Shown: positions 1 through 15,440 of the stretch, in pieces
Layout of the letters: the number at the start of each line of letters is the position of its first letter
How positions within the stretch are numbered: position 1 is the first letter of the stretch
DNA from: Bacilli bacterium
GTDB taxonomy: Bacteria > Bacillota_I > Bacilli_A > RFN20 > CAG-826
Assembly (NCBI GenBank): GCA_022641095.1
Contig: JALCDB010000006.1
Coordinates: 3,423 to 67,422 of the forward strand
DNA length: 64,000 nt
Reading direction: 5' to 3'
Notes under the pieces: generated by a model
Seen by the model: only the letters and a program-made list of their open reading frames with translations
Told to the model about the DNA's origin: nothing
Databases searched by the model: none
Position numbers and translations under genes: made by a program

Positions 1-3000
1 CGAATAACGGATTGGAACATGTACTCGCTGAGCGTTTTCGATCAAGGCAACGGAGGGAAGGCGTGTTTCTATCTTAACGGCAATTTCATTTGCATGCTGA
101 CGCTCGGCCACAAAATATCAGAGAATCTGACCGACCTGACGATCGGCGACACCGCTCTCGGAGACGGCCAAAGCGGAGCCTACCACGAGGCGAATGAGAC
201 GCCGATCAGAATCGCCATGCTCTCTATCGGAAGTTACTTCTATAAGAAAGCGAACTTCAAGGCGATATACGATATAAGCAAAAAATTCCTTTTCGATCCG
301 AGCGACGGCGATTCCTATTCTGGCGTCTGCTTTGAGACTTCGGATGGCGAGGATGGGGACTTCATCTCCCTTAACGGCGCATTCACGTCTTCGAAGCGGT
401 TGACCCCTCTCGTCGCCTCATATGGCGACGGTTCCTACAAAATCGACAAAGCGAGGAGTTTCGAGTTCGACAAGGAACTGAAACGCCACGTTTATTCTTC
501 CTATGATGGCGTCCTGAAACTTCAGGACCGAAACGAAAGCAGACTCGCCTATGAGCTAGGCCTTACGAATGAGGGGACGATCTCGCTTAAGTTCAAACCC
601 ACCATAAAGGGCGAAGACTACACAGAAAGGACGATAGTGTCCTTCTCCGACGGCGAACACAAAGAAAAGCTCTCGCTTTATCTCGACGCCAACGACGTTT
701 TGAACTACTCAGTCGATGGCAAGGCAAATAGCCTTGAGCTCATCGCCGAAAACGGTTCCTGGAACGCGCTCGTCATCAAACTCAACGGGCTCCTCGCCCT
801 TAACGGCGTCGAAAAGGCGCTTCCTCCGTTTGACCTGACGGGTCTCACAATGAACGTGGGATCCTCAATCGACGGAGCGGGCGCCCCAAACAAACACCTC
901 AACGGGCTCATCTGCGACATCCGTTTCGCAAAGGGCGATATTCGCAAACCCATCGAGTCCAGTTCCGTTTTGGAGAAACGCGACACGTTCGGAAGGAGAA
1001 CCGGCAAATGGATCTCGTTCGCCGGAAAAGCTCTTTCGAAAACGGAATATGGCTACGTTGCGCCCAAGGATGCGAACGGTAAGGCGATCCCCGGAAGAAC
1101 GTCAGTTGCCGTCGCTTTCGAGAACGGCGACAAAACCGGGAAGATCTCTTACGGATATGACGCTAACAGAAACGTGACCTCGCTCACCGTCGAAAAAAAC
1201 GGCAGCGAAAGCGTGACTTCTTATCGATACGACCCGCTTGAGAGGCTTGTCTCCTCGTCCAAAAAGGGAGACGCGGAGAAGAATGACTACGTCTACGACG
1301 ACAACGGGAACGTCTTAAGACGCACGCTCGTGAAAGACGGGACGACATCCGTCACGGAATTCCAGTACGACGAAGACAACAAAGAGAAGCTGGTCAAAGT
1401 GGTCAAGGATGGGCTGGAAACCCCGATAACGTACAGCCCAGACTCAATGTATCCGATCGCGATAGGCGAAGCTAGACTCAACTGGAGCATGGAAAGACTC
1501 TCGGAATTCGTCTCCGGCGATGTCCGGCTGCATTTCGACTACGACTATCTGGGAAGGAGAATCAAAAAGATTTCCGAAGGGTCGGAGATTGAATACGTCT
1601 ATGGCAAGGACAAACTGATCGCGGAGATCTCGGGATCGGCGAAGAAGTTCCTTGTCTACGACGAAAAAGGAAGCCTCGCTGGGTTCGTCAAAGAAACCGA
1701 CGGAGCGACGAGCCACTTCTTCTTCCTTAAGGACCAATTAGGCAACATCCGCTCGGTCATGGATTCTAAGGGGTCCATCGTGGCCGAATACGACTACGAC
1801 GACTATGGACTCGTTAAGAACCCCGAAAGTGTCGATTTCGAGTTCAACGACATCCTCTACAAGGGCTATGTATATGATCGTGAGACCGAACTATACCTGC
1901 TTGGTGGCAGATACTATTCGCCCGCCTTGATGAGATACATTTCCCCCGACAAGATCGGGAACCTCGTCTACGGGGCCTCGGATCTTGCTCAGTTCAATCT
2001 TTTCTCCTATTGCGGAGACAATCCAATCTCACGCATGGACGGAAACGGCGAGAACTGGTTCACGGATGCGTTCAAGAAAATCGGGAACGCGCTCAAGAAA
2101 GCGGCCGAAGCCGTCGTAGGTGGGGTAATAGCTGCCGCAGGAATAGTCATAGGCGCGGTAACAGGAGCCGTGGTTGGAGGCGCGAACGCCATGATCACGA
2201 GCATCAAAAAAGGCGAATCGTTTGGGGAAATTGCGTTCAATACGATAAAGGGGGTTGGCGAGGGCGCCGCCGTCGGGATAGCTGCCGTAATCTCCGCTGG
2301 CATATTCCTTTCAGGCTATATGTTCGGCGACGACGAAACGATGAAAATGGGAATAAATATCTTTGACAACACCGCCCTCCCGATGGCCATATCGTTTGCG
2401 CAGGAGAACATCATAGGCCTCATGAGCCTGGCCGGCGATTTGCACAACAGATTCACAACATTATCCGACGGGAACGATCCGTTCAGAGCAATCCTAAGTT
2501 ACATAACCAATGGGTCTTCTTGCGACAGCGACATAACCCAAGCGGATCTAGCTGAGGATGATTATTCCAAAAACATGAAAACCATAGGGGAAAACGAGAA
2601 GAACCTGATCTTCCCCACCATGAAGGACGAATTCGGATACCTCAAACCCACGAGTTCCCTCAACATAGTGGTCGACGGCAAGGTTTATATTACCAATCAA
2701 AACGATTCGTTCTATTCCACGATCAAATATGGATTCGCGACGATTAAGTTCAGCGGATGCGAGGTAATGGCGATCTACAACCTGCTTAGGTATCTCGGCA
2801 AGAAGGTCCCTTTCGCGAAACTCATTTATTACTTCGAGAAAAGGAACATCGCGTTCAGTTGCCTGGGCGCCTTACCGAACCACATGAGGGATCTGCTGGA
2901 CTCGATGGGAATCCCATATCGCTTCACCATAGACAAGAGTGACATACCTGAATTCACTCCGTCAAGGTTCGACGCCGTCGTGCCCACTTACTTCAACCAC

Positions 3001-3264
3001 TATTACGTCCCCGGCACGAAACTTACTGCCAAAAAAGACGCTAATTTCTATCTAATGATACACACAACATTCATGCCGAAAATAACCGTTTATACGTACA
3101 GATACGATGATCCGGACGGCGAAAAGGATTCATTAAAGTTCTTGGAGGTGAACGGCTCTGGTGAAACGAACGGATTTCAAACCTTAGAGGATAATGGAAT
3201 CGTGCAGAACCCGACATCCGATAAAGACAAGGTGATGATATCCCTGTTCGGCTTCGAAAAATGA
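1..3264 (+). CDS. RHS/YD-repeat polymorphic toxin, 5'-truncated by the window edge
   Basis: The frame of ORF 19..3264 stays open back to nt 1, so the gene probably starts upstream. It has a LamG/concanavalin-like N-region and YD repeats (YRYDPLERL, YVYDDNGNV, FDYDYLGRR, YDYDDYGLV). The RHS core end (RYYSPALMRYISPDKIG...GDNPISRMDGNGE) lies at about nt 1900-2050. A roughly 400-aa unrelated C-terminal module follows. Confidence 0.85.
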   Translation, partial: RITDWNMYSLSVFDQGNGGKACFYLNGNFICMLTLGHKISENLTDLTIGDTALGDGQSGAYHEANETPIRIAMLSIGSYFYKKANFKAIYDISKKFLFDPSDGDSYSGVCFETSDGEDGDFISLNGAFTSSKRLTPLVASYGDGSYKIDKARSFEFDKELKRHVYSSYDGVLKLQDRNESRLAYELGLTNEGTISLKFKPTIKGEDYTERTIVSFSDGEHKEKLSLYLDANDVLNYSVDGKANSLELIAENGSWNALVIKLNGLLALNGVEKALPPFDLTGLTMNVGSSIDGAGAPNKHLNGLICDIRFAKGDIRKPIESSSVLEKRDTFGRRTGKWISFAGKALSKTEYGYVAPKDANGKAIPGRTSVAVAFENGDKTGKISYGYDANRNVTSLTVEKNGSESVTSYRYDPLERLVSSSKKGDAEKNDYVYDDNGNVLRRTLVKDGTTSVTEFQYDEDNKEKLVKVVKDGLETPITYSPDSMYPIAIGEARLNWSMERLSEFVSGDVRLHFDYDYLGRRIKKISEGSEIEYVYGKDKLIAEISGSAKKFLVYDEKGSLAGFVKETDGATSHFFFLKDQLGNIRSVMDSKGSIVAEYDYDDYGLVKNPESVDFEFNDILYKGYVYDRETELYLLGGRYYSPALMRYISPDKIGNLVYGASDLAQFNLFSYCGDNPISRMDGNGENWFTDAFKKIGNALKKAAEAVVGGVIAAAGIVIGAVTGAVVGGANAMITSIKKGESFGEIAFNTIKGVGEGAAVGIAAVISAGIFLSGYMFGDDETMKMGINIFDNTALPMAISFAQENIIGLMSLAGDLHNRFTTLSDGNDPFRAILSYITNGSSCDSDITQADLAEDDYSKNMKTIGENEKNLIFPTMKDEFGYLKPTSSLNIVVDGKVYITNQNDSFYSTIKYGFATIKFSGCEVMAIYNLLRYLGKKVPFAKLIYYFEKRNIAFSCLGALPNHMRDLLDSMGIPYRFTIDKSDIPEFTPSRFDAVVPTYFNHYYVPGTKLTAKKDANFYLMIHTTFMPKITVYTYRYDDPDGEKDSLKFLEVNGSGETNGFQTLEDNGIVQNPTSDKDKVMISLFGFEK

Positions 3265-3311
3265 GTGAAGTACTAACAGAACGGAGTGAGGGGTCATCGA
3301 CGGCGTCCCCG

Positions 3312-3341
3312 TTATCACCCACGCTATACCCCTGCTATAAT
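3312..3341 (+). promoter_or_regulatory. candidate promoter for the lipoprotein array (-35 TTATCA, 18-nt spacer, extended -10 TGCTATAAT)
   Basis: Read directly in the 116-nt spacer between the RHS stop and the first lipoprotein ATG. The TGn-TATAAT element lies at about 3333-3341. Confidence 0.35.
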
Positions 3342-3380
3342 AGGTGCGTAAATGTAGCGGATGGGGGGCCGCCGAAAAAC

Positions 3381-4097
3381 ATGGGAAAAAGAAAAAGGAA
3401 GCTCCGGCCCGCCATCGCCGCCTCGCTCGTCGGGCTCTCGATGCTTTTGAGCTCCTGCGACGTCAAAACGGTCTACAGGGTCGGGGTCGACGAGGAGCAC
3501 AACCTCAGGTTCGTGCAGAGCTGCGAGAGCGACAACTGCCTGAGCGTCGACGAGTACTACTACGACGGGCCCGCCCGAAGCGGCAGGATCGCCATGGGCA
3601 TCGTGATACCGGAGTCCATCGAGGGCATGCCGGTGAGGGTCATGGGCAGGGACGACGTGTCCATTAGGCAGGTCTACGACGACCCCGAGTACCGCCACGA
3701 CGCGGCCTGGCCCGGAGGCTCCTGCAGCGATTTCATCGTGGCCACCCGGGTTCCCTTCGAGGAGGGGACCTCGTTCGAGTTCGACTTCGACATAAGGGCC
3801 GACCTGGACTACGTGTCCCTGAGCGGAACCCTTAGCCTTGGCGGAGGAGGAGGAGGGTTCCTCATGGACAGGTACGAAAGCTGCCCGTCGCACACCGAAC
3901 GCGTCATGTTCGACTGCTCGTTCAGCTTCGAGGTCGCCGAGGGCTGCGAGAACTACTACTCGAGGGACGGGAGGCTGTTCAGGAGGAGGGAAGGCGGCGA
4001 CAAGGAGATAACGATGCCAGAACAGGTGTACGTCGACTCCGACTTCTACCACCGCAACTGCAGCGAACCGGGCCAGGCCCCGTCGTCCCAGCCATGA
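3381..4097 (+). CDS. tandem paralogous lipoprotein, copy 1 (candidate RHS-toxin immunity protein)
   Basis: This is an internal ATG of track ORF 3261..4097. The protein starts MGKRKRKLRPAIAASLVGLSMLLSSCDVK (n-region, hydrophobic core, lipobox LSSC). It is 238 aa and highly similar to the next two ORFs. Its stop overlaps the next ATG (ATGA). Confidence 0.75.
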   Translation: MGKRKRKLRPAIAASLVGLSMLLSSCDVKTVYRVGVDEEHNLRFVQSCESDNCLSVDEYYYDGPARSGRIAMGIVIPESIEGMPVRVMGRDDVSIRQVYDDPEYRHDAAWPGGSCSDFIVATRVPFEEGTSFEFDFDIRADLDYVSLSGTLSLGGGGGGFLMDRYESCPSHTERVMFDCSFSFEVAEGCENYYSRDGRLFRRREGGDKEITMPEQVYVDSDFYHRNCSEPGQAPSSQP

Positions 4098-4807
4098 GGA
4101 AGAGCGAAAGGAAGCTCCGGCCAGCCCTTGTCGCCTCCCTCGTCGGGCTCTCGATGCTTTTGAGCTCCTGCGACGTCAAAACGGTCTACAGGGTCGGGGT
4201 CGACGAGGAGCACAGCCTCAGGTTCGTGCAGGACTACGAGAGCAGCAACTGCCTGAGCGTCGACGAGTACTACTACGACGGGCCCGCCCGAAGCGGCAGG
4301 ATCGCCATGGGCATCGTGATACCGGAGTCCATCGAAGGATTGCGGGTGAGGGTCATGGGGAGGGATTTCCCGGACAGTATGCAGGTCTACGACGACCCCG
4401 AGTACCGCCACGACGCGGCCTGGCCCGGAGGCTCCAGCAGCGATTTCATCGTGGCCACCCGGGTTCCCTTCGAGGAGGGGACCTCGTTCGAGTTCGACTT
4501 CGACATAAGGGCCGACCTGGACTACGTGTCCCTGAGCGGAACCCTTAGCCTTGGCGTAGGAGGAGGGTTCCTCATGGACAGGTACGAAAGCTGCCCGTCG
4601 CACACCGAACGCGTCATGTTCGACTGCTCGTTCAGTTTCGCGGTCGCCGAAGGGTGCCGGAACTACTACTCGAGGGGCGGGAGGCTGTTCAGGAGGAGGG
4701 AAGGCGGCGACAAGGAGATAACGATGCCAGAACAGGTGTACGTCGACTCCGACTTCTACCACCGCAACTGCAGCGAACCGGGCCAGGCCCCGTCGTCCCA
4801 GCCATGA
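4094..4807 (+). CDS. tandem paralogous lipoprotein, copy 2 (candidate immunity protein)
   Basis: The ORF starts MRKSERKLRPALVASLVGLSMLLSSC. It has an ATGA overlap with both neighbours and is a paralog of copies 1 and 3. Confidence 0.75.
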   Translation: MRKSERKLRPALVASLVGLSMLLSSCDVKTVYRVGVDEEHSLRFVQDYESSNCLSVDEYYYDGPARSGRIAMGIVIPESIEGLRVRVMGRDFPDSMQVYDDPEYRHDAAWPGGSSSDFIVATRVPFEEGTSFEFDFDIRADLDYVSLSGTLSLGVGGGFLMDRYESCPSHTERVMFDCSFSFAVAEGCRNYYSRGGRLFRRREGGDKEITMPEQVYVDSDFYHRNCSEPGQAPSSQP

Positions 4808-5511
4808 GGAAGAGCGAAAGGAAGCTCCGGCCAGCCCTTGTCGCCTCCCTCGTCGGGCTCTCGATGCTTTTGAGCTCCTGCGACGTCAAAACGGTCTACA
4901 GGGTCGGGGTCGACGAGGAGCACAGCCTCAGGTTCGTGCAGGACTACGAGAGCAGCAACTGCCTGAGCGTCGACGAGTACTACTACGACGGGCCCGCCCG
5001 AAGCGGCAGGATCGCCATGGGCATCGTGATACCGGAGTCCATCGAAGGATTGCCGGTGACTGAAATGGGAAGAGGAAATGTGGAGTGTACGCAGGTCTAC
5101 GACGACCCCGAATACCGCCACGACGCGGGCGGGTATGGCAGCCCTTTTGGCTGTTTCATAGTGGCCACCAAGGTGCCATTCGAAGAGGGGACCTCGTTCG
5201 AGTTCGACTTCGACATAAGGGCCGACCTGCACTACGTGTCCCTGAGGGATGACTCCGATGGAGGCGGCTTCCTCATGGACAGGTACGAAAGCTGCCCGTC
5301 GCCCACCGAACGCGTCATGTTCGACTGCTCGTTCAGCTTCGAGGTCGCCGAAGGGTGCCGGGACTACTACTCGAGGGACGGGAGGCTTTTTGAGAGGTAC
5401 CGAGACGGAAGCGGCGAAAGGGAAATAGAGACCCCATCGCATGTTTACGTCGAGTCCGACTCCCTTTATTATCGCTGCAGCGAACCGGGCCACCCATCTC
5501 CGCAGCCATGA
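4804..5511 (+). CDS. tandem paralogous lipoprotein, copy 3 (candidate immunity protein)
   Basis: This is the internal ATG (codon 51) of track ORF 4654..5511. Its first ~83 aa are identical to copy 2, and the central and C-terminal patches diverge. Confidence 0.75.
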   Translation: MRKSERKLRPALVASLVGLSMLLSSCDVKTVYRVGVDEEHSLRFVQDYESSNCLSVDEYYYDGPARSGRIAMGIVIPESIEGLPVTEMGRGNVECTQVYDDPEYRHDAGGYGSPFGCFIVATKVPFEEGTSFEFDFDIRADLHYVSLRDDSDGGGFLMDRYESCPSPTERVMFDCSFSFEVAEGCRDYYSRDGRLFERYRDGSGEREIETPSHVYVESDSLYYRCSEPGHPSPQP

Positions 5512-5595
5512 GGAAGAGAAAAAAGTTTTGGGTTGCTACGGCCGCCTCTTCTCACAAAAACGCGCGAGTTCATATCGCTACCATTGCTTGTTTGC

Positions 5596-6675
5596 TTATT
5601 CTTTGGAACGAGACCGATCAATTTCGTTTCCAAAGACGAAAGACTCGCCCCTCACGATTCTTGGATTCTGATAATAGCCGTTTTTCGCTATTTTCCTGTT
5701 GATCAACCGCACCAGGATGTCGGTTGCCTGTTTGGTCATACTCGTGTAGTTTTGTTTGACGTAACTGAGTTTAGGGCGAAAGACAAGTTTCGGATTGTTG
5801 GTTCCGCCAAGGGCGAACACCGCCACGTCTTTGCCGACTTGCAAATTCCGTTCTCCCGCGGCTTTGTACACCGAGTAAGCGTGATCTCCGGAGCCAACGA
5901 TAAAAGCCCGGTATTCCTGATCAAGCAGCTTTAACGCTTCGATTCTTCCTTCCTCGATGTCCCGTGGCATCGACAAATTGGAAATGTGCCCTTCGAAATG
6001 ATACTCTTCGCTCGCGGCCTTAAACGCGTCGTCGCGATCCCGCCCCACGGAGACGATATCTGAAACGTTGATGAGGGCGATTTTACTAAATCCGGCTTCC
6101 ACCATGGCTTTGGCGACATTCTTCGTGATGTTGATGATTTCGGAATCGACAAAGGAAAAATTTGGGTTGTGAACCTTGAAGTGCGGATTCCCTATGCAGA
6201 CGCATGGGATGCAATTATCCGACAGGCGCTTAACCTTGGCTTCGGATATTTGCGGATTAAGCAAAATCGCGCCATCTATGGGCGAAGAGCCGCTGGAGAG
6301 ATGGCTTACGATCTCGTCTGCGCTGACGCCAAAATAAACCAGAACGTTGTAGCCAAAGGCAAAGGCCTCGGTAATGCAGGATTGCGAAACATCCCGGAAG
6401 AAATGAAGGTACTGGTTCTCCCGCACGTACAAAAAAAGACCGATGATGTGGGTCGAACGGTTGGGCTTGGAGAGAGCGCCAGCATAAAAGTCCGGGGTAT
6501 AGGAAAGGTCTTTGGCGGCATCCAGCACTTTCTCGGTGATGGAAGGCGAGACTTTCTTGGCGCCGCTAAAAACGTTGGAGACCGTCGATTTCGCCACCCC
6601 AACTTTCGTAGCAATATCAATTAATCGGCTTTTTTCTTGCTTTTTAGAGGATACTGGAGAAACGGTTTTTTTCAT
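5596..6675 (-). CDS. LacI-family transcriptional regulator (paralog 1)
   Basis: The HTH reads IDIATKVGVAKSTVSNVFSG...YTPDFYAGALS, followed by a periplasmic-binding-protein-like sugar-binding core. I prefer the ATG at 6675 (MKKTVSP) over the track's upstream TTG at 6693. Confidence 0.9.
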   Translation of the reverse strand: MKKTVSPVSSKKQEKSRLIDIATKVGVAKSTVSNVFSGAKKVSPSITEKVLDAAKDLSYTPDFYAGALSKPNRSTHIIGLFLYVRENQYLHFFRDVSQSCITEAFAFGYNVLVYFGVSADEIVSHLSSGSSPIDGAILLNPQISEAKVKRLSDNCIPCVCIGNPHFKVHNPNFSFVDSEIINITKNVAKAMVEAGFSKIALINVSDIVSVGRDRDDAFKAASEEYHFEGHISNLSMPRDIEEGRIEALKLLDQEYRAFIVGSGDHAYSVYKAAGERNLQVGKDVAVFALGGTNNPKLVFRPKLSYVKQNYTSMTKQATDILVRLINRKIAKNGYYQNPRIVRGESFVFGNEIDRSRSKE

Positions 6676-6888
6676 CGTTAGTATTCTACACAATTATTCC
6701 GCTCGGTTAAAAGCGGGTTTTTGAGGAGCCAGCAACAAAAATAGTTTTTATGAATTGTAAATTTAGAATATTGATATGGCGGTTTTATCAAAAGATTTAA
6801 CGAAAAATCACAAAAAAATAGCATGATAAATGCATTGTTTGCAACGGTTGTTTTCGCCATTTGTAAACTGTTTTCCTGCGAGAGTGGA

Positions 6889-6938
6889 TTGAATATTTCG
6901 TTATTGGTTTTTATAATCATGTTTGAAAACCGGTTTTC
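6889..6938 (+). promoter_or_regulatory. promoter (-35 TTGAAT 6889-6894, 17 nt, -10 TATAAT 6912-6917) plus perfect 14-bp palindromic operator GAAAACCGGTTTTC (6925-6938)
   Basis: Read directly. The palindrome lies between the -10 box and the AAGGAGG RBS (6941-6947) of the gene starting at 6953. It has the central-CG dyad typical of LacI-family operators. Confidence 0.55.
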
Positions 6939-6952
6939 TTAAGGAGGAACTT

Positions 6953-8932
6953 ATGGATAACCGCAAAAACAAATCCGCCTGTCTTATTCTCTCTTCAACC
7001 TTTTTGGCCTTGGCTCTAACGTTATCAGCCTGCGGCAACACGAATCCGCCAACGTCAAGCCCTGACGCAAACAGCGTGACAACAAGCTCAAAACAAACCG
7101 TTGCCCTGGCTGCGCCTGTTGTTTCTTTAAACGGAAAGAACGTTTGTTGGAACGCTGTCCCTGGCGCAACCTCTTATCTCGTCAACATCGACGGAAACGA
7201 AAGCGAAGTGACGGCCACTTCCTATTCTTTGGAGTCCCTGACCGATCCGAAGGATTATAGCGTTTCCGTCAAAGCCAAAGCGGGCGAGGTCGTTTCCTCG
7301 TCATCCAACGTGGTTACTTATGTTCTTACCGTCACCCTTGCCACCCCGGTCATCGCCATTTCTGGCAACCTCGTCAGTTGGGAGGCCGTCGACAAAGCCA
7401 CTTCTTACGAAGTCTTTGTGAACGAGGTTTCCGTTACGACCGTAAGCGAAACGCATTACGCGATCACGGATGAGGACGAGGGAGATTACGTCGTTGCCAT
7501 CAAAGCCCACTCAACGGACACCCATTATCTGACCTCAGATATAAGCAATAGCGTTAAGTACACCATCGCCCCTGCCCCAGAGCCGGTGAAACTGGCCACG
7601 CCAGTCGTCACTTTGGAAAACAAAGTCATTTCCTGGTCGGCGATCGCCAACGCCACAACCTATGAAGTTTATTTGAACGACGCCCTTAAGGACGAAACGT
7701 CGGAGTTGAACTACGATCTCAGTTTGCTGACCGCCGGCGTTTATTCGATTCAAGTCGATGCCTGCAACAAGGCCTCGAGCGATTACTCCACAAGCGACAA
7801 GAGCATCGCGGTCTCTTTAACGATCGAAGACCTCTCGTTCTCGAAACCGATTATCGCCTACTATCCAAGCAGCGACGACGGCAACATCCTTTTGAAAGAC
7901 ACCGATGAAGGCGTCATGCACGAATTCGTGCCGACCGCCACCGACGACTTGGCTTTGAACACTTGGTATTTCGAAGCCGTCGATGGACAGGCGAACACCT
8001 ATTTCATCAAACTTTATAATGGCTATTACCTTACCTATAGTTCCAGCGTCGCCGACGGGTCGGAAACGGTCGCTGACCCAAAACTGCCGAGCGATTCCTC
8101 AAGCATCATCAACCAGGAGTGGAAGATAACCACGAACGGGGATGGATACGATTTGCAGAATCTGGGCCATATCGCCCGTTGGGGGAATTATTACTTCGGC
8201 AAGGTCGATGGGAAGATGAAGTTTGGCTCGGGTCTGAAGGCGTGGCTATTGAACAACAACGCCAACGCCTATATGAATAAGACCAAACTGAGCGCCCCAA
8301 GCCTCACCGCTTCGGGCTATGTCGTGAGTTGGGCTGGCGTCAGCGGCGCCACCGCCTATGAAGTCTACGTCGACGGTGTCTTAGCGGACACGGTCAGCGA
8401 GACGGCCTACACCGTTACGAAGGACTGCAAAGTCCAAGTCAAAGCCATCTCAAGCGACGATGCTTATTTGGCCAGCTACCTCTCATCCAGCGTTGATTGC
8501 AGCGACCTTTTCGCCAAGAAAGTTTGGGCTTATTATAACGGTAGCCACAAGACTTTAGGCTATGTTGACGGCGATGATGGCAATATCTTCAAGATCGGTG
8601 CCGCCTACACCGACGTCAGCGATTACGCCCCTTACGAATGGACGGTTTCCCTCGTTCCTGGGACAAACTATTACACCATCGCCTTCGATAGCGGGTTGAA
8701 TCTCTCCTATTTCGACAATTCCGCCTCTGGGAACGTCCCCCAAACCAAAGCGGTCGTTGCCGACGCCACGGATTCCAAACAACAATGGAAACTCATCAGC
8801 GACGGCACGAATGCCTACAAACTCGAAAACGTGTATTTGTCCAATTACTATTCGAACGTCTACCTTGGCGAATACTACGGCGTTTACAAATTCAACGGCG
8901 TTTGCACGAGTTGGGTGTTCGCCAACGTATAA
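6953..8932 (+). CDS. surface lipoprotein with 4 Fn3-like repeats and 2 beta-trefoil (ricin-B-like) modules; putative glycan-binding protein
   Basis: AAGGAGG lies 6 nt upstream of ATG 6953. The lipobox is LTLSAC. Four repeats carry the SW-AV--A-sYeV motif. The QxW-type motifs QEWKI and QQWKL are present. Confidence 0.8.
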   Translation: MDNRKNKSACLILSSTFLALALTLSACGNTNPPTSSPDANSVTTSSKQTVALAAPVVSLNGKNVCWNAVPGATSYLVNIDGNESEVTATSYSLESLTDPKDYSVSVKAKAGEVVSSSSNVVTYVLTVTLATPVIAISGNLVSWEAVDKATSYEVFVNEVSVTTVSETHYAITDEDEGDYVVAIKAHSTDTHYLTSDISNSVKYTIAPAPEPVKLATPVVTLENKVISWSAIANATTYEVYLNDALKDETSELNYDLSLLTAGVYSIQVDACNKASSDYSTSDKSIAVSLTIEDLSFSKPIIAYYPSSDDGNILLKDTDEGVMHEFVPTATDDLALNTWYFEAVDGQANTYFIKLYNGYYLTYSSSVADGSETVADPKLPSDSSSIINQEWKITTNGDGYDLQNLGHIARWGNYYFGKVDGKMKFGSGLKAWLLNNNANAYMNKTKLSAPSLTASGYVVSWAGVSGATAYEVYVDGVLADTVSETAYTVTKDCKVQVKAISSDDAYLASYLSSSVDCSDLFAKKVWAYYNGSHKTLGYVDGDDGNIFKIGAAYTDVSDYAPYEWTVSLVPGTNYYTIAFDSGLNLSYFDNSASGNVPQTKAVVADATDSKQQWKLISDGTNAYKLENVYLSNYYSNVYLGEYYGVYKFNGVCTSWVFANV

Positions 8933-8955
8933 TCATCGAGGTTTTATCACTCATC

Positions 8956-11586
8956 ATGAAACGAAAGCAATTTTCACTCCTTGCCTTAGCCATGGCCACA
9001 TCGTTATTCGCTTGCAAAGCCCCCGATGGAAGTTCGTCCGTCCCCACGAGCGGCGAGGCTTCCTCTTCCGATGGGACCGCCAAGAAACTCGCCGCCCCGA
9101 CCGTAGTTTTGAAAGATTCGATCGTCAGTTGGAACGCCATTCCTAACGCCGATTATTATCACGTCTACATCAATTCCAACGAAAAAGGAGACGTCTTTGC
9201 CACGCGTTACTCCTTGGATTCCTTAACGGAAGCCGGAACTTACCTCATCCAGGTCAGCGCCGATAACAGCGCCCAGGATGGCGTTTGCTCCGATTTGTCC
9301 AATTTGCTTTCCTACACCGTGTCCGCCAAAGACAGCGCGGTCCCCTTAGCCGTGACATCTCTTGGCTCAAAAGCCGATTATACCTATGACGGCACTTGGA
9401 AGAAAGTTACGGACACCGTTTTGAATCGACAACTGCTGAAAGCCGATCTTTGGAGCGGGTTCGTCAATCAGTTCCGTTCCAACGTCGATGGGGATGGATA
9501 CGGTTGGCGCGGCGAATTTTGGGGCAAGATGATGATGGGCGCGACGGCGATGTACGAACAGAGCAAAGACCCCACGCTTTATCAGATTTTGCTGACGACT
9601 TGCAAGGATATTCTGACTACGCAGAGCCCCGATGGCAGAATCTCCAGCTATGGCCGGCTCAGCGAAGACGACTCCAGCGAGTTTTACGGTTGGGATATAT
9701 GGTGCCGGAAATATGTTTTGATGGGACTGGAAAGTTTTTACGACATTTGCCAAGACGAAAACGTGAAAGCCCAGCTTCTGACGGCCATGGAGAGGCACGT
9801 CGATTACATTCTCCGCTACATCGGCCCCGAAACGGGCAAAAAGAGCATCTTGGATTCCTCGTCGCAATGGGGCGGGCTGCCTTCTTGCAGCATCTTGGAA
9901 GGCATCGTCAAACTATATACGCTCAGCAAAGAAGAAAAATATTTGGACTTCGCGAGCTATATCGTCTCTACCGGTGGCTCGAAATTCGGCAACCTGGTTG
10001 CCCAAGCGATCGTCAATACGACGCTTCCTTATCAATGGGGAAGCCCAAAAGCCTATGAACTGACTTCTTTTTTCAACGGTTTGCTGTCCTACTCATTGAC
10101 TACCGGGGACGCGGACTGCCGAACCGCGGCTTTAAACTACGCCGAGGACTTGCTGGATAGCGAGATCACGTTGACTGGCGGCATGGGATGCGCGGGCGAA
10201 GAATTGAATTATTCGGTGATCGACCAAGCCAATCCGGATCGCACGGGAACGATGCTGGAAACCTGCGTCAGCGTCGAATTGCTCCGTTTCTTTTTGAACG
10301 TCTATCAAGCCACGGGCGATGTCCGTTATGTGGATTCGGCCGAACGGACCCTTTACAACGCTTTGATCGGAGCCGTCGACATGGACTGCAACTATGACCA
10401 CGCTTTCACGAGTTATTTCAACCTGGTTTTTGGCATAAAGACTCGCAGCGCGGCCGGCGGAATGCACATGGCGGAGCGCGATTATGGCTGCTGCATTTCC
10501 TTCGGCTCGGCCGGAACCGGGGCGATTCATCGTTACCAGATCGTCGAAAACGGGGCCGATCGCTACTTATTGAATTTTTATTTACCGGGAACGGTTTCCT
10601 TTGCTTTGGCCAGCGGGCAGAAGGTCAAGCTAACCACCGAAACCAATTACCCTTATTCGGGCCTTGTTTCCATGAAAGTTGGCTTGGAAGGACCCGCTGA
10701 ATTCCGTTTGGGTTTGCGCATTCCTTCCTGGTCAAAACAAACGACAATCGCGGTCAATGGCATGGCGCAAACCATCAGCCAATCGGGTTTTGATTACCTT
10801 TTGGAAAGAACCTGGCAAAACGGCGACCTCATAACGATGAAAATGGATATGAACCCCCGCCTTTATTGGGGATCGAGACTTTGCCTCAACAAGAACGCCC
10901 AATACAACGTCGCAATCAATTATGGGCCGTTGGTACTGGCTCGCGATCGTCGGTTGGACGAAGGCAATATCTTCCAAACCATTCATATGAAGACAATCGA
11001 CGGGGCTCCGGTTCTTACCGCGAGCAAAACGGCCGCTTTCTTCACCCAAGCGGAATTTTCCCTTAGCTTAGAAGACGGAACAAACGTGCATCTGATCGAT
11101 TACGCTTCCGCGGGCAAAACATATGACCTCAGTTCCCTTTACACCGTTTTCATGCCCACTACGGATTATTGGAATAAAATCTCTGACATGAGCAAGAAAC
11201 TCGTTCTCGTTTCGGAAGACAACTCCGCTCTAATTTCCTTATCGAGCGACGGCAGCCGGTTCCAGATGGGTGGTTTCTATTACGATCATGAGAACGAACT
11301 CGGCAAATGCGCTTTCAATATCACGGACCGAGGCGATTCTTACTATTCCTTGGATTGGTCCGCAAGCGGATTGTCCTTGACCGCCGACGGCGCCACCGCC
11401 GTTCCGAAAGCCTATGACGGCGGCGATGACCAGCTCTTCAAGATCGATCGTTTGAATCTCGTCTCCTATGCCTTTATCAGCAAGAGCGGAGGCGCTCTTC
11501 TCTCCGTGGATGGCGACGGGCTTAATCTCCATCTCTATTCCGATTGCTCGAGCCCAAAGCAGCGCTGGAAAATCATTAACGCCTAA
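8956..11586 (+). CDS. surface lipoprotein, GH127/GH146-like (DUF1680, beta-L-arabinofuranosidase fold) with an N-terminal Fn3-like and a C-terminal beta-trefoil-like module
   Basis: I use the ATG at 8956 (MKRKQFSLLALAMATSLFAC lipobox) rather than the track start at 8785. The GH127 hallmarks MLETC (Glu-x-Cys) and DYGCC (Cys-Cys) are present, and TLYNALIGAV resembles the family. The C-terminal motif is KQRWKI. Confidence 0.7.
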   Translation: MKRKQFSLLALAMATSLFACKAPDGSSSVPTSGEASSSDGTAKKLAAPTVVLKDSIVSWNAIPNADYYHVYINSNEKGDVFATRYSLDSLTEAGTYLIQVSADNSAQDGVCSDLSNLLSYTVSAKDSAVPLAVTSLGSKADYTYDGTWKKVTDTVLNRQLLKADLWSGFVNQFRSNVDGDGYGWRGEFWGKMMMGATAMYEQSKDPTLYQILLTTCKDILTTQSPDGRISSYGRLSEDDSSEFYGWDIWCRKYVLMGLESFYDICQDENVKAQLLTAMERHVDYILRYIGPETGKKSILDSSSQWGGLPSCSILEGIVKLYTLSKEEKYLDFASYIVSTGGSKFGNLVAQAIVNTTLPYQWGSPKAYELTSFFNGLLSYSLTTGDADCRTAALNYAEDLLDSEITLTGGMGCAGEELNYSVIDQANPDRTGTMLETCVSVELLRFFLNVYQATGDVRYVDSAERTLYNALIGAVDMDCNYDHAFTSYFNLVFGIKTRSAAGGMHMAERDYGCCISFGSAGTGAIHRYQIVENGADRYLLNFYLPGTVSFALASGQKVKLTTETNYPYSGLVSMKVGLEGPAEFRLGLRIPSWSKQTTIAVNGMAQTISQSGFDYLLERTWQNGDLITMKMDMNPRLYWGSRLCLNKNAQYNVAINYGPLVLARDRRLDEGNIFQTIHMKTIDGAPVLTASKTAAFFTQAEFSLSLEDGTNVHLIDYASAGKTYDLSSLYTVFMPTTDYWNKISDMSKKLVLVSEDNSALISLSSDGSRFQMGGFYYDHENELGKCAFNITDRGDSYYSLDWSASGLSLTADGATAVPKAYDGGDDQLFKIDRLNLVSYAFISKSGGALLSVDGDGLNLHLYSDCSSPKQRWKIINA

Positions 11587-11597
11587 GGAGGCCCCCC

Positions 11598-14372
11598 ATG
11601 AACTACCGAAAAAGAATCTTCGTCTTCTTGCTCTCGGGGGCCCTCGTCTCTTGCGGAATCCCTAGTCAAAGCGATTCGACGCCTTTAACAAGTGGGAGCT
11701 CTTCCTCCTCTGCCGTCGTCGACAACCAAAAGGACCTTTTCTTCAAAACGCCGGGTTTCGCCGATTGCGTATACGTGCTTTCCTATTCTTCGCTAAGCGC
11801 CGATGAGTTCGCGATCGCCGGGGCCTTGCAGGGGATTTTGGCGCAGAAGGCCAGCGAATTGTATATCCAGGGAGCCGACGGAGACGATGGAAGCTGGTTC
11901 CAAGCCTGCAAGAGCCGTTATGGCTTCGCCAGTAAAAGCCTCGCTTCGATTTGGGACGCCGTTGACCAATTCTCCTCCCGAATCAAAGGGCAGAAATACG
12001 TCGTCTACGACAGCCAGGCATCCGGGGCTTCCTATAGCGACGATAGCATCAACCAAGCCGCGGTGATCGCCGCTTGCGAAAACTATCTGCCCATACCCTC
12101 TTCTTTGGTGGGCAAAGCCCAGGGGCATGGCCTAAGCCAAGGCGAAGACGCACGGAACTACACAACCAGAACGGTCTTCGAAAAATACAAGGACCGATTG
12201 AATAACGCTTTCTTGATCCATCAGTCCCCCAGCAATTATTTCCTCCGCGATTATGGCATCGCGGGCAAAGCGATGTGCTTCTATTCTTCGACCGATGACT
12301 ATGAGGTTTCCAATGAGATCAAAAGATGGGCGAAGGCCAATGCCCCGATCTTAGGATGGACCGACAACGAGGTCGATTTCGTTTCCTCGAACTCTTTGCT
12401 TTCCAAGATAACTTACGCCGCCGATTATTCGGCCAATCTTTCGTTTTATTCGGCCGCTTCGTACAAAACGTTGACCCAAAGGAAAAACGATAGCCCCATA
12501 ACGCCGGAAAAAGGCAAACATTACGCCGCCATCCTTATGAGCGATGGCGACAACATCCAATGGATGGAAAACGACTTCTCGACGTCCAATAAATACTATG
12601 GTTCCCCGAAGCGGGGCGCTTTCCCGGTCACTTGGACCACGTCGCCCGCCCTTTATGACCTCGCTCCGAATATCCTTAAGGATCTCTACGACAAGGAGAC
12701 CGCCAACGACGACTTCATCGCCGGCCCTTCGGGAGTGGGTTACGTCAACCCTTATGATTACGCTTCTTCTTCCATCGACGAATACGCCGCGAAAACCGCT
12801 TCTTACATGAAGGCCAGCGACCTGCACTGCGTCAACCTGCTCGACGGCGTCGTTCCCGATCCGGAGAACCGCTCCGAAGTCGTTGCCCCATTCGCCAAGC
12901 AAGAGGGGATCGAAGGCGGCGTTTGGTCGCTTGGCGATTACTACCTGGGCGGCAACGGATCCGTGACTTGGTCCAATGACAAACCTTTCGTCTCCGTTCG
13001 CGAGAGTCTATGGCTCGACACTAACGCCACCGATCACAACAAATACTACGGCTATCCGGAACGTATCGCCCAACGGGTGAACGCCTATAGAAAGGATTAC
13101 ACAAAGATCGAAGGCTATTCCGTGATCCTCGCTCACGTTTGGAGCGCTGGCACGATGCAAGGGGTGAGCCGTTTGGCCTCGTGTTTGGACGACGATGTTG
13201 TTTTGGTGAGCGTTCCTCAGTTATTACGGTTGATCAAAGACAACGTCCCCCATAACAACGTCGACACTCTCAATGACATCAAACCAAGCGATTTCGACGG
13301 AAACTTAACCCCGCTTCTTTCCGAGCAATACGACGTCGCGACGCTTAGCGCGGTCACGACCAGCGACACTCGGGTTTTTGCCTTTAGCGACGCCACTTCA
13401 AGCCTTGGTTGGCAGTTAGGAAACGGCGGAGAGCAATATGATTCCTCCCGTTTTGCCGACGCCTCGGGTGGCGGGGCTCCGGCGATCTGCCTCGATGGGT
13501 CCGATTTGGGGAACGTCGCCGATCCCTATCCCAACGCTTGGGCTTATAACCGCTTCGTTTTGTCGAGCGATTCCTCAAGCGACAATTGGCTGAATCTCCA
13601 TTTAGGAGGCTCTTCCGGCAACGTCGATGGGAACTTCCGAGTCAGGGTCTTGGAACTCAATAACGGAAAGATCGTTTCCACGACTTTGGTGTCTCCGGAC
13701 TACACAACCGAGGTCAATGAATTCGGATATTACCTGCACACTTCTTCTTCCCCTGGCCGTTATGCCTTCGACCTCGCTCCCTTCAAGGGGAAAAACGTCA
13801 TCGTTTCCCTTGAGCAAGACGACAGCGGCGAAGGCAGCGGCGAGGCGATCTATTTATATCGGATCAGCATCGACGCCGCGCGCGAGGTGGCGGGCTCAAG
13901 GACTTGGTGGGACAACGAGTATCTCTTTCTGGATTGGAATAAATCCGGAACGGTGGCTCGCCTTCCCGAAGGCGTGTCTTTGGAAGCGAGCAACGGCCCT
14001 TCTTCCATCAGTGACGGGATCGCCATTACGAACGAATTGAAATACTTGAAGTTCTACGTTCGCATGTTCATTCGAAGCGGCACCCAAGCCGATACGTCGC
14101 CCGAGCTTTCCTTCAGCGTGAACGGCACCCAAGTCAAGCCTTTCGGCGTCGAGGGAACGACTCTGACGATCGCGAGCGATTATTATCGTTGCTGCGCCTA
14201 TGATCTGTCCGCTTACGTCGGAACGAAGGCGAAAGTGACCCTCACGTCGCTAAAGGGCGAGCACGCGGCGATTTATTTGGCCAAACAGGACGGCGTTTGC
14301 ACTAACGCCGAGGTGAATTCGCTCTATTCCGAAGCTCAGTTAAAAGAGATGGTTTCCAAGCTCGCGGTTTAG
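11598..14372 (+). CDS. GxGYxYP-family putative glycoside hydrolase, lipoprotein, with C-terminal beta-sandwich-like modules
   Basis: AGGAGG lies 6 nt upstream of the start and the lipobox is LVSCG. The family motifs are ILMSDGDNIQW and AGPSGVGYVNP. The C-terminal module contains SLEQDDSGEGSGE. Confidence 0.75.
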   Translation: MNYRKRIFVFLLSGALVSCGIPSQSDSTPLTSGSSSSSAVVDNQKDLFFKTPGFADCVYVLSYSSLSADEFAIAGALQGILAQKASELYIQGADGDDGSWFQACKSRYGFASKSLASIWDAVDQFSSRIKGQKYVVYDSQASGASYSDDSINQAAVIAACENYLPIPSSLVGKAQGHGLSQGEDARNYTTRTVFEKYKDRLNNAFLIHQSPSNYFLRDYGIAGKAMCFYSSTDDYEVSNEIKRWAKANAPILGWTDNEVDFVSSNSLLSKITYAADYSANLSFYSAASYKTLTQRKNDSPITPEKGKHYAAILMSDGDNIQWMENDFSTSNKYYGSPKRGAFPVTWTTSPALYDLAPNILKDLYDKETANDDFIAGPSGVGYVNPYDYASSSIDEYAAKTASYMKASDLHCVNLLDGVVPDPENRSEVVAPFAKQEGIEGGVWSLGDYYLGGNGSVTWSNDKPFVSVRESLWLDTNATDHNKYYGYPERIAQRVNAYRKDYTKIEGYSVILAHVWSAGTMQGVSRLASCLDDDVVLVSVPQLLRLIKDNVPHNNVDTLNDIKPSDFDGNLTPLLSEQYDVATLSAVTTSDTRVFAFSDATSSLGWQLGNGGEQYDSSRFADASGGGAPAICLDGSDLGNVADPYPNAWAYNRFVLSSDSSSDNWLNLHLGGSSGNVDGNFRVRVLELNNGKIVSTTLVSPDYTTEVNEFGYYLHTSSSPGRYAFDLAPFKGKNVIVSLEQDDSGEGSGEAIYLYRISIDAAREVAGSRTWWDNEYLFLDWNKSGTVARLPEGVSLEASNGPSSISDGIAITNELKYLKFYVRMFIRSGTQADTSPELSFSVNGTQVKPFGVEGTTLTIASDYYRCCAYDLSAYVGTKAKVTLTSLKGEHAAIYLAKQDGVCTNAEVNSLYSEAQLKEMVSKLAV

Positions 14373-14432
14373 CCGTCCGCCCTCTCTTGCGAGGAGCAAA
14401 CCCCTCCCGTCAACATACGATTGATCTTCCTT

Positions 14433-14469
14433 AAAAAGCCTTGCCAGCGGTCGCGGCAAGGCTTTTTTT
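14433..14469. terminator. bidirectional rho-independent terminator between convergent genes
   Basis: The sequence is AAAAAGCCTTGCC-agcggtcgc-GGCAAGGCTTTTTTT, with A-run and T-run flanks. Confidence 0.7.
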
Positions 14470-14480
14470 CGCGAACTCAG

Positions 14481-15440
14481 TCAGACCTTCATCCAAAGCG
14501 CGGCGGCGCCGAGGATGCCGGCGTCGTTGCCAAGGCTCGACACCACGATGTCAACCTTCGGCGAATGGGACCCGCCAAAGCCAAAACCCTGAGAAGCCAC
14601 ATAGGCGACTAACGGCTTCGTCAAAGCTTCTTTCTGCCCGGACAGGCCGCCGCCCAAAACGATGGCGTCAGGACGGAAAACGTTGATGAAGTTCAGACAA
14701 CCCTCGCCTAAGAAGCGAATGTATTGATCCACGACCTTCTGAGCTGAGGGATCACCCTTTTTGGCGCATTCGAAAGCCGTGAAGCCGCTAACTTTGGCGA
14801 TGTCGCCGCCAACGTAACCCCACATCGCCGACTTAGGGTCTTTCCGCATCGCCCCTAAGGTGTCTTTGATCAAGGCGCTCACCGAGGCGTAGGCCTCTAA
14901 GCAACCAAAACGGCCGCAAGTGCATTCGCGGCCATCCATTACCAAAAGGGAGTGGCCAAGCTCAGCCCCCTTGCTCTCGTTGCCTTCATACAACCGGTCA
15001 TTAAGATACAGGCCGCCGCCAACGCCGGTGCCCAAAGTCAGCATGACGACGCTGTGGTAGCCTTTGGCGGCGCCTAAACGAACCTCACCAAGGATCGCCG
15101 CGTTGGCGTCGTTCATGACTTTCGAAGGGATCGAGGTCAGTTTTTCGACGATTGCTACAACGGGAAGGTTTTCCCAACGAAGGTTATTGGAATAATCGCA
15201 ATACCCGGTGGTCGAATTGATCGATCCTGGGCAACCAATTCCGATCCCTGAGATATCTTTCGGGGACAAGGCATTGTCCAAAAGGGTCTTGTTGATCAGT
15301 TTCCCTAACTCCAAAAGGGTCTCCTCGCCACTCTTGCGGGGGTCGATGCGAAAAGAAAAGCGGACAAGCAGTTGGCCTTCTTCGTCCACGATCGCGGATT
15401 TGATGGATGTCCCGCCGATATCAACGCCGATGATTTTCAT
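14481..15440 (-). CDS. ROK-family sugar kinase (gluco/manno/fructokinase type)
   Basis: The N-terminus is MKIIGVDIGGTSIKSAIV and the ROK Zn motif is CTCGRFGCLEAYAS. It has an ATGA overlap with the upstream isomerase gene. Confidence 0.85.
   Translation of the reverse strand: MKIIGVDIGGTSIKSAIVDEEGQLLVRFSFRIDPRKSGEETLLELGKLINKTLLDNALSPKDISGIGIGCPGSINSTTGYCDYSNNLRWENLPVVAIVEKLTSIPSKVMNDANAAILGEVRLGAAKGYHSVVMLTLGTGVGGGLYLNDRLYEGNESKGAELGHSLLVMDGRECTCGRFGCLEAYASVSALIKDTLGAMRKDPKSAMWGYVGGDIAKVSGFTAFECAKKGDPSAQKVVDQYIRFLGEGCLNFINVFRPDAIVLGGGLSGQKEALTKPLVAYVASQGFGFGGSHSPKVDIVVSSLGNDAGILGAAALWMKV

Follow-up and report, generated by a model that had tools for sequence, protein, structure and literature searches.

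A stretch of 64,000 nucleotides from contig JALCDB010000006.1 of a Bacilli bacterium (assembly GCA_022641095.1), referred to here in its entirety as the window, opens inside an RHS gene that is followed on the same strand by three tandem lipoprotein genes. Judging from comparison with homologous loci, the three lipoproteins are most likely the cognate immunity proteins of the RHS product. The locus probably represents a toxin cassette of uncultured low-GC (guanine plus cytosine) Bacilli or ‘Mollicutes’-like bacteria, in which an RHS cocoon toxin is paired with lipoproteins that would provide cognate immunity at the outer face of the membrane. We infer both the toxin activity and its site of action at the cell surface. 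An earlier annotation, made without database searches (hereafter the sequence-only reading), had proposed amplified immunity genes at this position; the features that it listed (RHS gene, spacer, promoter, three genes, lipobox, ATGA junctions) are all present at the coordinates given below, and its central proposal appears largely supported by comparative evidence.

Linkage of the toxin tip and the lipoprotein across lineages

A word-indexed search for the lipoprotein among 5.8e9 proteins gave 12 matches and an exhaustive profile search against 1.84e9 cluster representatives gave 33; among 185,579 species genomes, 5 loci carry it. For the C-terminal tip of the RHS protein, the 5.8e9 proteins included four other relatives (P0013–P0016), three of them fragments, in addition to the RHS C-termini found in the loci themselves. 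A second word-indexed search with an alignment of the tip was saturated by glycine-rich words and added only P0016, a 185-aa tip fragment that occurs alone. Because both families are extremely rare, chance adjacency of tip and lipoprotein is excluded. A metagenome scan with the tip recovered only the already known contig and a scan of viral contigs with the lipoprotein gave no match, so that there is no evidence for a phage-borne pair.

In each of the four lineages with an intact tip, the gene immediately 3′ of the tip encodes a lipoprotein homolog; one tip pseudogene has such a neighbour as well. In hosts of about 50% GC (the window and loci L001, L010 and L015), the RHS gene and its tip are intact and are accompanied by three or four lipoprotein copies. 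A single copy accompanies an intact tip in L011 and L016 (uncultured Mollicutes UMGS236, host GC 32%, RHS protein of 2,411 aa), in L017–L019 (host GC 29–32%, RHS likewise 2,411 aa) and in L005, a short contig (host GC 32%) on which the lipoprotein gene is cut at the contig end. Two further loci carry a decayed tip. L004, a near relative of L011 (host GC 32%), has one lipoprotein copy and an in-frame TAA in the tip at 9818–9820, where the intact ortholog in L011 has a sense codon. In L014 (Firmicutes bacterium CAG:449, host GC 26%), two frameshifted tip remnants at 9442–9914 sit beside one intact lipoprotein gene.

The sequence-only reading had proposed the neighbourhoods of homologs as a check: every intact tip is followed by a lipoprotein, with no intact tip lacking an adjacent lipoprotein gene among the loci examined, but lipoprotein genes with no toxin nearby also exist (L003/L012/L013, L006, L020 and L023–25). 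The neighbours of the orphan in L003 include TIR-domain and HipA-like genes, and the orphan in L020 adjoins a DUF1016 gene. In L023 (3338–4734), and likewise in L024 and L025, two divergent tandem lipoprotein paralogs that overlap by 34 nt lie between RNase J and pyridine-nucleotide oxidoreductase genes; the pair looks like an orphan mini-array without a nearby RHS gene or tip. This combination (a lipoprotein beside every intact toxin, its retention beside decayed ones and the existence of orphans) is expected of a cognate immunity gene and not of an export helper.

Divergence between lineages shows the usual gradient, with identities of approximately 51% for the RHS shell, 44% for the tip and 30–33% for the lipoprotein; over the individual homologs the ranges are 42–47% for the tip and 30–36% for the lipoprotein. 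Between the window and L001, the number of nonsynonymous substitutions per nonsynonymous site (dN) rises from 0.019 in the shell to 0.056 in the C-terminal domain and 0.083 in the hydrophobic region of the tip, which makes the hydrophobic region the fastest-evolving part of the RHS protein in this comparison and the tip 3–4 times faster than the shell. The description of the toxin as ‘polymorphic’ was not borne out in this sample, which is small: 4/4 homologous RHS proteins (window/L001, L011, L017 and L004) carry the same tip family.

Anatomy of the lipoprotein array

The RHS stop codon is followed by a 116-nt spacer (3265–3380, + strand) with a sigma-70-type promoter, TTATCA-18-TG-TATAAT, at 3312–3341. 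Its TATAAT is preceded by TG, 10 of the 12 consensus positions are matched, and the promoter is conserved in L001. No terminator-like hairpin was found between the RHS gene and the array. Downstream lie, all on the + strand, copy 1 (3381–4097, 238 aa), copy 2 (4094–4807, 237 aa) and copy 3 (4804–5511, 235 aa), so that three lipoprotein paralogs behind their own promoter, each with a lipobox (3/3), are present as had been proposed. Consecutive copies are joined through ATGA overlaps, with copy starts spaced 713 and 710 nt apart; at the protein level, copy 2 shares 91% and copy 3 78% identity with copy 1. Copy 1 is closest to copy 2 of L001 (95% DNA identity) and copy 3 is closest to copy 4 of L001 (90% DNA identity). 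The 64-kb window contains no other copy of the toxin-tip or lipoprotein family.

An in-frame upstream start for copy 1 (at 3261, or at the site used by L001 copy 1) was considered and rejected, as the window reads ATG-TAG at the L001 site. The TAG directly after the L001-type upstream ATG and the conservation of the lipobox-bearing start fix the start of copy 1 at 3381. Long antisense open reading frames at 3324–4052, 4046–4762 and 4756–5493 (minus strand; 242, 238 and 245 aa) were likewise discarded as genes. Their GC at first codon positions (0.79–0.86) mirrors the GC at third codon positions (GC3) of the sense frame, which is 0.88, 0.87 and 0.79 in copies 1, 2 and 3; the antisense frames are by-products of the GC-rich sense frame, and the + strand is coding. 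Tandem Repeats Finder left the array undetected, its maximum period of 500 being shorter than the 713-nt repeat period.

Exactly three positions in the window (4089, 4799 and 5503) carry the junction 16-mer CAGCCATGAGGAAGAG. The third occurrence leads into a remnant of a further copy (5508–5550, + strand; approximately 45 nt, the first ~14 codons) that consists of the ATGA junction and an n-region, so that the proposed truncation of the array at its 3′ end is confirmed. The remnant MRKRKKFWVATAAS resembles the signal-peptide n-region MGKRKRGFWIAATAS of L001 copy 1, and beyond it the similarity stops. It is also present in L001, in a version with a 1-nt deletion, and in L002; since it is common to all three, the truncation predates divergence of the strains. 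The truncation point is near the 3′ end of a convergent LacI-family gene (5596–6693, minus strand).

Two contigs of approximately 160 nt from a wastewater library labelled RNA-Seq match copy 1 (3462–3815) with 2 and 9 mismatches. They hint at transcription of copy 1 in a related strain, but contaminating DNA is possible and the matches are too weak to claim expression.

Copy number and recombination

The three-copy array is real: the same three copies recur on a separate contig from JGI (L015) that matches the window at 99.98% identity over 10.8 kb, and the copies differ from one another by 6–16% in DNA. In four bioreactor-sludge runs the k-mer depth in the repeat is 2–3 times that of the flanks, a measure that does not resolve the exact copy number, and short-read unitigs break inside the repeat. 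The related strain UW_MP_BACIL6_1 (‘MAG: Bacilli bacterium’; L001 and L010), with an RHS protein 93% identical, has four lipoprotein copies, and a short contig from another sample (L002) has the last three copies behind the 3′ end of a further one. Copy number is thus three in the window and L015, four in L001 and L010, and one in the other RHS-linked lineages.

Copy 2 is a mosaic of copies 3 and 1. It is identical to copy 3 over the first 240 nt and nearly identical to copy 1 over the last ~400 nt (from approximately nt 300), and the 60-nt stretch between these parts (4334–4393) is unlike any other known copy. Its protein is identical to P0001, which is encoded on other assembled contigs, including L015. 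A hybrid of this kind, with a 5′ part from copy 3 and a 3′ part from copy 1 and lying between the two, is the product expected of unequal crossing-over. Among the seven copies from GC-rich hosts, conserved blocks (codons 21–40, 61–80, 121–140 and 181–200; ratio of nonsynonymous to synonymous rates, dN/dS, of 0.2–0.4) alternate with variable blocks (81–120, 141–180 and 201–240; dN/dS 0.4–0.9), and the variable blocks coincide with low-confidence loops of the AlphaFold2 (AF2) model described below.

The GC3 of the array is an outlier relative to every other gene of the window (0.45–0.69, median 0.62). The single-copy homologs in AT-rich L011 and L017 have GC3 in line with their hosts and show no such excess. 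GC-biased gene conversion in a recombining array is a possible source of the excess, as is a separate origin of the array.

The RHS gene and its C-terminal tip

The window holds the 3′ 3.2 kb of the RHS (YD-repeat cocoon) gene (1–3264, + strand). Its frame is open from base 1, with the first ATG at 19 and the stop codon at 3262–3264; as bases 1–18 contain no in-frame stop, the gene runs off the 5′ end of the window. The identification as an RHS toxin gene made in the sequence-only reading is upheld by matches to RHS_repeat (PF05593, E = 4.6e-9) and Rhs_assc_core (TIGR03696, E = 1.4e-15, aa 593–677), the latter exceeding the curated cut-off. The window product is 93% identical to residues 1335–2415 of the L001 RHS protein, and full-length orthologs have 2,411–2,415 aa (2,415 in L001). 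The L001 ortholog carries TEN_YD-shell (PF25023) in the precomputed Pfam annotation, and its N-terminal 1,334 aa match PF05593 in a Pfam scan at E = 2.7e-21. At the N-terminus of the full-length ortholog we found no hydrophobic signal sequence and no PAAR- or LXG-type trafficking domain in Pfam.

The Rhs-associated core domain (1795–2049, + strand) ends in the motif ...GDNPISRMDGNGENW (nt 2017), which marks the start of the putatively encapsulated tip, and the tip that follows this motif has 404 aa. Its first part is a glycine-zipper-like hydrophobic region (2089–2328, + strand) with two predicted membrane segments at approximately aa 696–725 and 746–770. Residues ~691–770 are rich in Gly and Ala and exceed 1.6 in 19-residue Kyte–Doolittle windows, and the region is kept in L011, L017 and P0014. 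The remainder is a C-terminal domain of approximately 310 aa (2329–3261, + strand). Residues of this domain that are conserved in an alignment of six lineages and fragments are Cys914 (nt 2758–2760, motif GCE[IV]MA.YN.L.YL), His955 (motif WP.H) and His1015 (nt 3061–3063, motif HTTF), together with a PTYF motif; Cys914 and His1015 are invariant in every homolog that spans them.

Sequence searches of Pfam, NCBIfam, PHROGs and the PDB gave no usable match for the tip; stray PDB matches at E ~0.1–1 (WBP1, beta-2-microglobulin, monoglyceride lipase) are short chance similarities. The tip is thus a putative toxin domain without detectable relatives. An AF2 model built on a 5-sequence alignment is unreliable (predicted local distance difference test, pLDDT, of 35.8), and in this low-confidence model Cys914 sits immediately ahead of a helix. 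Tox-PL-C39 is among the papain-like toxin domains listed by Zhang et al. (PMC3482391), and a papain-like cysteine peptidase of this sort was looked for in the tip, with no homology found in the same four collections. From its motifs the tip may be a candidate Cys/His hydrolase, possibly papain-like or C39-like.

Anchor, fold and remote relatives of the lipoproteins

All three copies begin with a K/R-rich n-region followed by LVGLSMLLSSC. The lipobox, MRKSERKLRPALVASLVGLSMLLSS|C in 3/3 copies, fits the expected order of basic n-region, hydrophobic h-region and [LVI][ASTVI][GAS]C. Of 13 distant homologs, 12 have a lipobox of the L[TS]SC type and one has a transmembrane segment at the N-terminus instead, so that extracytoplasmic anchoring is a property of the family. 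The proposal of an extracytoplasmic lipoprotein neutralising a toxin at the outer face thereby stands as regards the anchor, which is conserved and fits neutralisation at that face; the site of action would follow only by inference.

The lipoprotein has no sequence match in Pfam, NCBIfam, PHROGs or the PDB. Copies 1–3, P0008 and P0009 show no Pfam match even at E ≤ 10, so the gathering score of LRR_5 (PF13306), a leucine-rich repeat (LRR) family, is not reached. An AF2 model from an 11-sequence alignment is all-beta (pLDDT 65.8), with low-confidence loops at 94–114 and 150–172 between confident strands. The Foldseek comparison suggested earlier returned nothing significant in the PDB: the first two distinct matches, PcpA 4cp6 (E 0.046, template modelling (TM) score 0.17) and 4h09 (E 0.58, TM score 0.12), are both BspA-type LRR proteins. 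Large repeat proteins make up the weak tail of the exhaustive profile search (1.84e9 sequences; E 7.7e-10 to 8.6e-4), and 7/7 of those tested (E 8e-10 to 8e-4) carry LRR_5. The similarity is limited to query segments ~68–99 and ~179–211, with motifs IPESIxGxPV..G and YYSxDGxLF. The lipoprotein thus appears to be a small, degenerate and remotely related version of BspA-type LRR units that falls outside LRR_5 by Pfam's criterion. Imm-LRR is among the immunity families listed by Zhang et al. (PMC3482391).

Proposed mechanism

In the reading that we favour, an RHS cocoon of approximately 2,400 aa would enclose the ~400-aa tip, composed of a glycine-zipper hydrophobic hairpin and then the domain with the conserved Cys and His. 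Sealed in the shell within the producer, the tip would call for no cytoplasmic immunity. Once released, the toxin would reach neighbouring cells, where the hairpin may engage the membrane from outside. Membrane-anchored lipoproteins, built on a degenerate BspA-type LRR-like beta scaffold, would bind the tip as it arrives on the outer side of the cytoplasmic membrane and prevent either its activity or its insertion. The dedicated promoter and ATGA translational coupling would ensure that all copies are made together. The array grows, shrinks and reshuffles through homologous recombination between the conserved blocks, giving variants that differ mainly in loops, and such non-identical copies could plausibly widen protection against tip variants of related strains.

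A more far-reaching version, which we put forward tentatively and consider rather doubtful as a whole, describes a self-contained cassette (sigma factor, XhlA-like protein, Hol44 holin, nucleotidyltransferase, RHS and lipoprotein) in bacteria of 26–52% GC. Its cocoon would be released by a holin-dependent route, its new-fold toxin would act on the exterior of the target membrane, and immunity would come solely from outside through LRR-like lipoproteins, since the shell would replace cytoplasmic immunity; the GC3-enriched array would reflect recombination-driven, possibly GC-biased, evolution of the repertoire.

Evidence against and alternative explanations

Several observations weigh against reading the lipoproteins as cognate immunity proteins of an outside-acting toxin. 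The linkage of the family to this tip in 4/4 intact-tip lineages speaks for the proposal of amplified immunity genes; it is qualified by the fact that all RHS-linked loci represent one orthologous cassette. Because the whole RHS protein is orthologous across lineages (51–53% identical over ~2,400 aa), the adjacency is conserved synteny from one origin and not repeated independent association. Positive selection on the variable loops was sought and none was found, the maximum dN/dS being 0.92 with no window above 1. The GC3 of the array (0.79–0.88, versus 0.63 in the tip) is unexpected for a co-inherited pair. The tips of L011 and L017 have a third hydrophobic stretch, so a two-transmembrane topology that leaves the C-terminal domain outside is not general. 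Finally, the LRR_5 relationship does not reach the Pfam threshold, nor is the structural match significant.

Adhesion at the cell surface is the typical role of BspA-type LRR proteins. The distant kinship with surface proteins of the LRR_5 type, the extracellular membrane anchor and the tight linkage to RHS would all suit lipoproteins that serve as accessory surface factors, docking the released RHS particle on producer or target cells or acting as receptor or decoy; the MafA lipoprotein that accompanies MafB toxins offers a comparable case (PMC3482391). We nevertheless consider this improbable: the gene occupies the canonical immunity position downstream of the toxin, it is intact beside the decayed toxin of L014, it occurs alone in RHS-less genomes (L003, L006, L012, L013, L020 and L023–25), which is unexpected for an export or display helper, and immunity genes are known to be amplified into co-expressed variants that are not identical (PMC9484751). 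More improbable still is that the array encodes variable surface lipoproteins for antigenic or phage-receptor variation, of the Vlp/Vsp/Vsa type of Mollicutes, that merely adjoin the RHS gene. Tandem genes that share an almost identical signal peptide and 5′ region, vary in internal blocks and recombine with one another in Mollicutes-like Bacilli would fit such a system. No phase-variation switch is apparent, however: a single promoter lies 5′ of copy 1, the genes are ATGA-coupled, and no homopolymer tract, inverted repeats or invertible element was seen, while other lineages have a single copy and the family stands beside one toxin tip far more often than chance would place it.

Immunity conferred by the lipoproteins is compatible with a different account of the toxic moiety, namely that the glycine-zipper hairpin itself forms a membrane-depolarising pore like EsxX or TspA, with the C-terminal domain serving for targeting or as the grip for the lipoprotein in place of a Cys/His enzyme. 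We judge this account unlikely on balance. In its favour, all lineages keep the two strongly hydrophobic segments rich in Gly and Ala, the C-terminal domain matches no enzyme family, and outside-acting glycine-zipper toxins have been published (PMC12744356). Yet the known immunity proteins against membrane-depolarising toxins (TsaI, ExiCD) are polytopic membrane proteins and not globular lipoproteins, and at ~310 aa the C-terminal domain is long, with invariant polar residues, Cys and His among them, of the kind usually found in active sites. A metagenomic source and unitigs that break inside the repeat might, lastly, suggest that the three copies are an assembly artefact, from a collapsed or expanded repeat or from strain mixing. 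The divergence between copies, the agreement of the independent L015 assembly, the raised repeat depth and the four ordered copies of related strains in three assemblies leave this hardly credible.

Upstream genes, possible release route and neighbouring genes

As the window starts inside the RHS gene, the region 5′ of it was read from homologous loci. In L001 (1–1917) and L011 (168–2363), the RHS gene is preceded by genes for a sigma-70 region-4 protein, an XhlA-like protein (97–101 aa), a Hol44-family holin (PF16079, E = 2e-14) and an NTP_transf_2 protein, and this set is conserved between organisms of 52% (L001) and 32% GC (L011). TcC of the Tc toxins is an RHS cocoon. Release of Tc toxins by the type 10 secretion system (T10SS) has been described (PMC10847048). 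By analogy, an RHS protein that has no signal peptide and follows holin and XhlA genes leads us to conjecture holin-dependent release of the kind seen for T10SS or the pathogenicity locus (PaLoc) of C. difficile (tcdR-tcdE-tcdA/B). The likeness lies in sigma-factor and holin genes ahead of the gene for a large toxin, here the signal-peptide-less RHS protein of L001 and L011. The L001 and L011 loci differ in that no endolysin or spanin was identified there, and any role of the holin is putative.

Directly downstream of the lipoprotein gene in L011, on the opposite strand (10956–14498), are a second holin-like/XhlA-like pair and phage tail fibre-like genes; L004 has such a second pair as well. 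The L011 toxin cassette may lie beside a prophage lysis module. In the window, the array is followed at 5596–14369 by the LacI-family regulator (minus strand) and then by large secreted or lipoprotein genes for glycan utilisation. Their syntenic counterparts in L001 show faint RicinB lectin matches and GH127 beta-L-arabinofuranosidase-like and GxGYxYP domains. These glycan-utilisation genes appear unrelated to the toxin locus.

Implications and comparison with known systems

If the lipoproteins are confirmed as immunity proteins, the recombining tandem immunity repertoires of type VII secretion system (T7SS) toxins would extend to an RHS toxin of uncultured Bacilli, and a further outward-facing, lipid-anchored immunity protein, here on an LRR-like scaffold, would join TipC and the bioinformatically recorded Imm65. 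A new toxin domain with no detectable relatives, probably surface-acting, would also have been flagged, and the locus would provide a simple test case for RHS-shell encapsulation removing the need for cytoplasmic immunity. The practical importance is modest, as both families are very rare and all known members come from metagenomes, namely of bioreactor sludge, landfill and gut samples.

The locus shares with classical Rhs/WapA loci (rhs-CT/rhsI) an RHS shell, an Rhs-associated core that demarcates the tip and a small gene immediately downstream (PMC3482391). It differs in that the array of the window has no orphan tip modules, no tip polymorphism is seen, PAAR, signal-peptide and LXG domains are absent, and the candidate immunity protein is a lipoprotein; in the survey of Zhang et al., Imm65 is the only immunity family that is a lipoprotein (PMC3482391). 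The EsxX-ExiAB/ExiCD system offers a glycine-zipper hydrophobic motif in the toxin and orphan genes for immunity on the extracellular side, the immunity protecting from outside against EsxX being found as orphan genes in non-producers as well (PMC12744356). In contrast to the window, ExiCD is polytopic and ExiAB provides a separate cytoplasmic immunity, which the RHS shell presumably replaces here, and there is no sequence relationship.

Amplification of immunity genes alone had been regarded as unusual by the sequence-only reading, a view contradicted by the published strings of esaG, tsaI and tipC immunity paralogues without interleaved toxin tips (PMC9484751). Immunity-only arrays in S. aureus reach 12 copies, and esaG genes are gained and lost through homologous recombination between conserved blocks (PMC9484751). 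EsaD-EsaG and TspA-TsaI of Staphylococcus aureus thus resemble the window in their immunity-only tandem arrays; they differ in that EsaG is cytoplasmic (DUF600), TsaI is a membrane protein and the toxins are T7SS substrates, and the families are unrelated to those of the window.

The nearest known counterpart is TelC-TipC of Streptococcus, with an LXG toxin of the T7SS, which combines outward-facing immunity of the lipoprotein type with multiple non-identical tandem copies beside the toxin gene. TipC, which is exposed to the extracellular space and probably has a lipoprotein signal peptide, neutralises TelC, a lipid II phosphatase that acts extracellularly, and tipC occurs as up to 15 tandem, recombining paralogues with conserved end blocks and a variable centre (PMC9484751). 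Conserved 5′ and 3′ blocks that flank variable regions, strain-variable copy number and recombination between paralogues are likewise common to both systems. Homology to TipC or TelC was not detected: PDB profile searches were empty at E ≤ 10 although TipC2 (6DHX) is a PDB entry, and no TipC entry is among the 50 Foldseek matches listed for the lipoprotein model. The toxin of the window is an RHS cocoon without an LXG domain or T7SS context, and its lipoprotein copies are ATGA-coupled. The toxin and candidate immunity families described here are thus new, and the arrangement in which they occur is already known.

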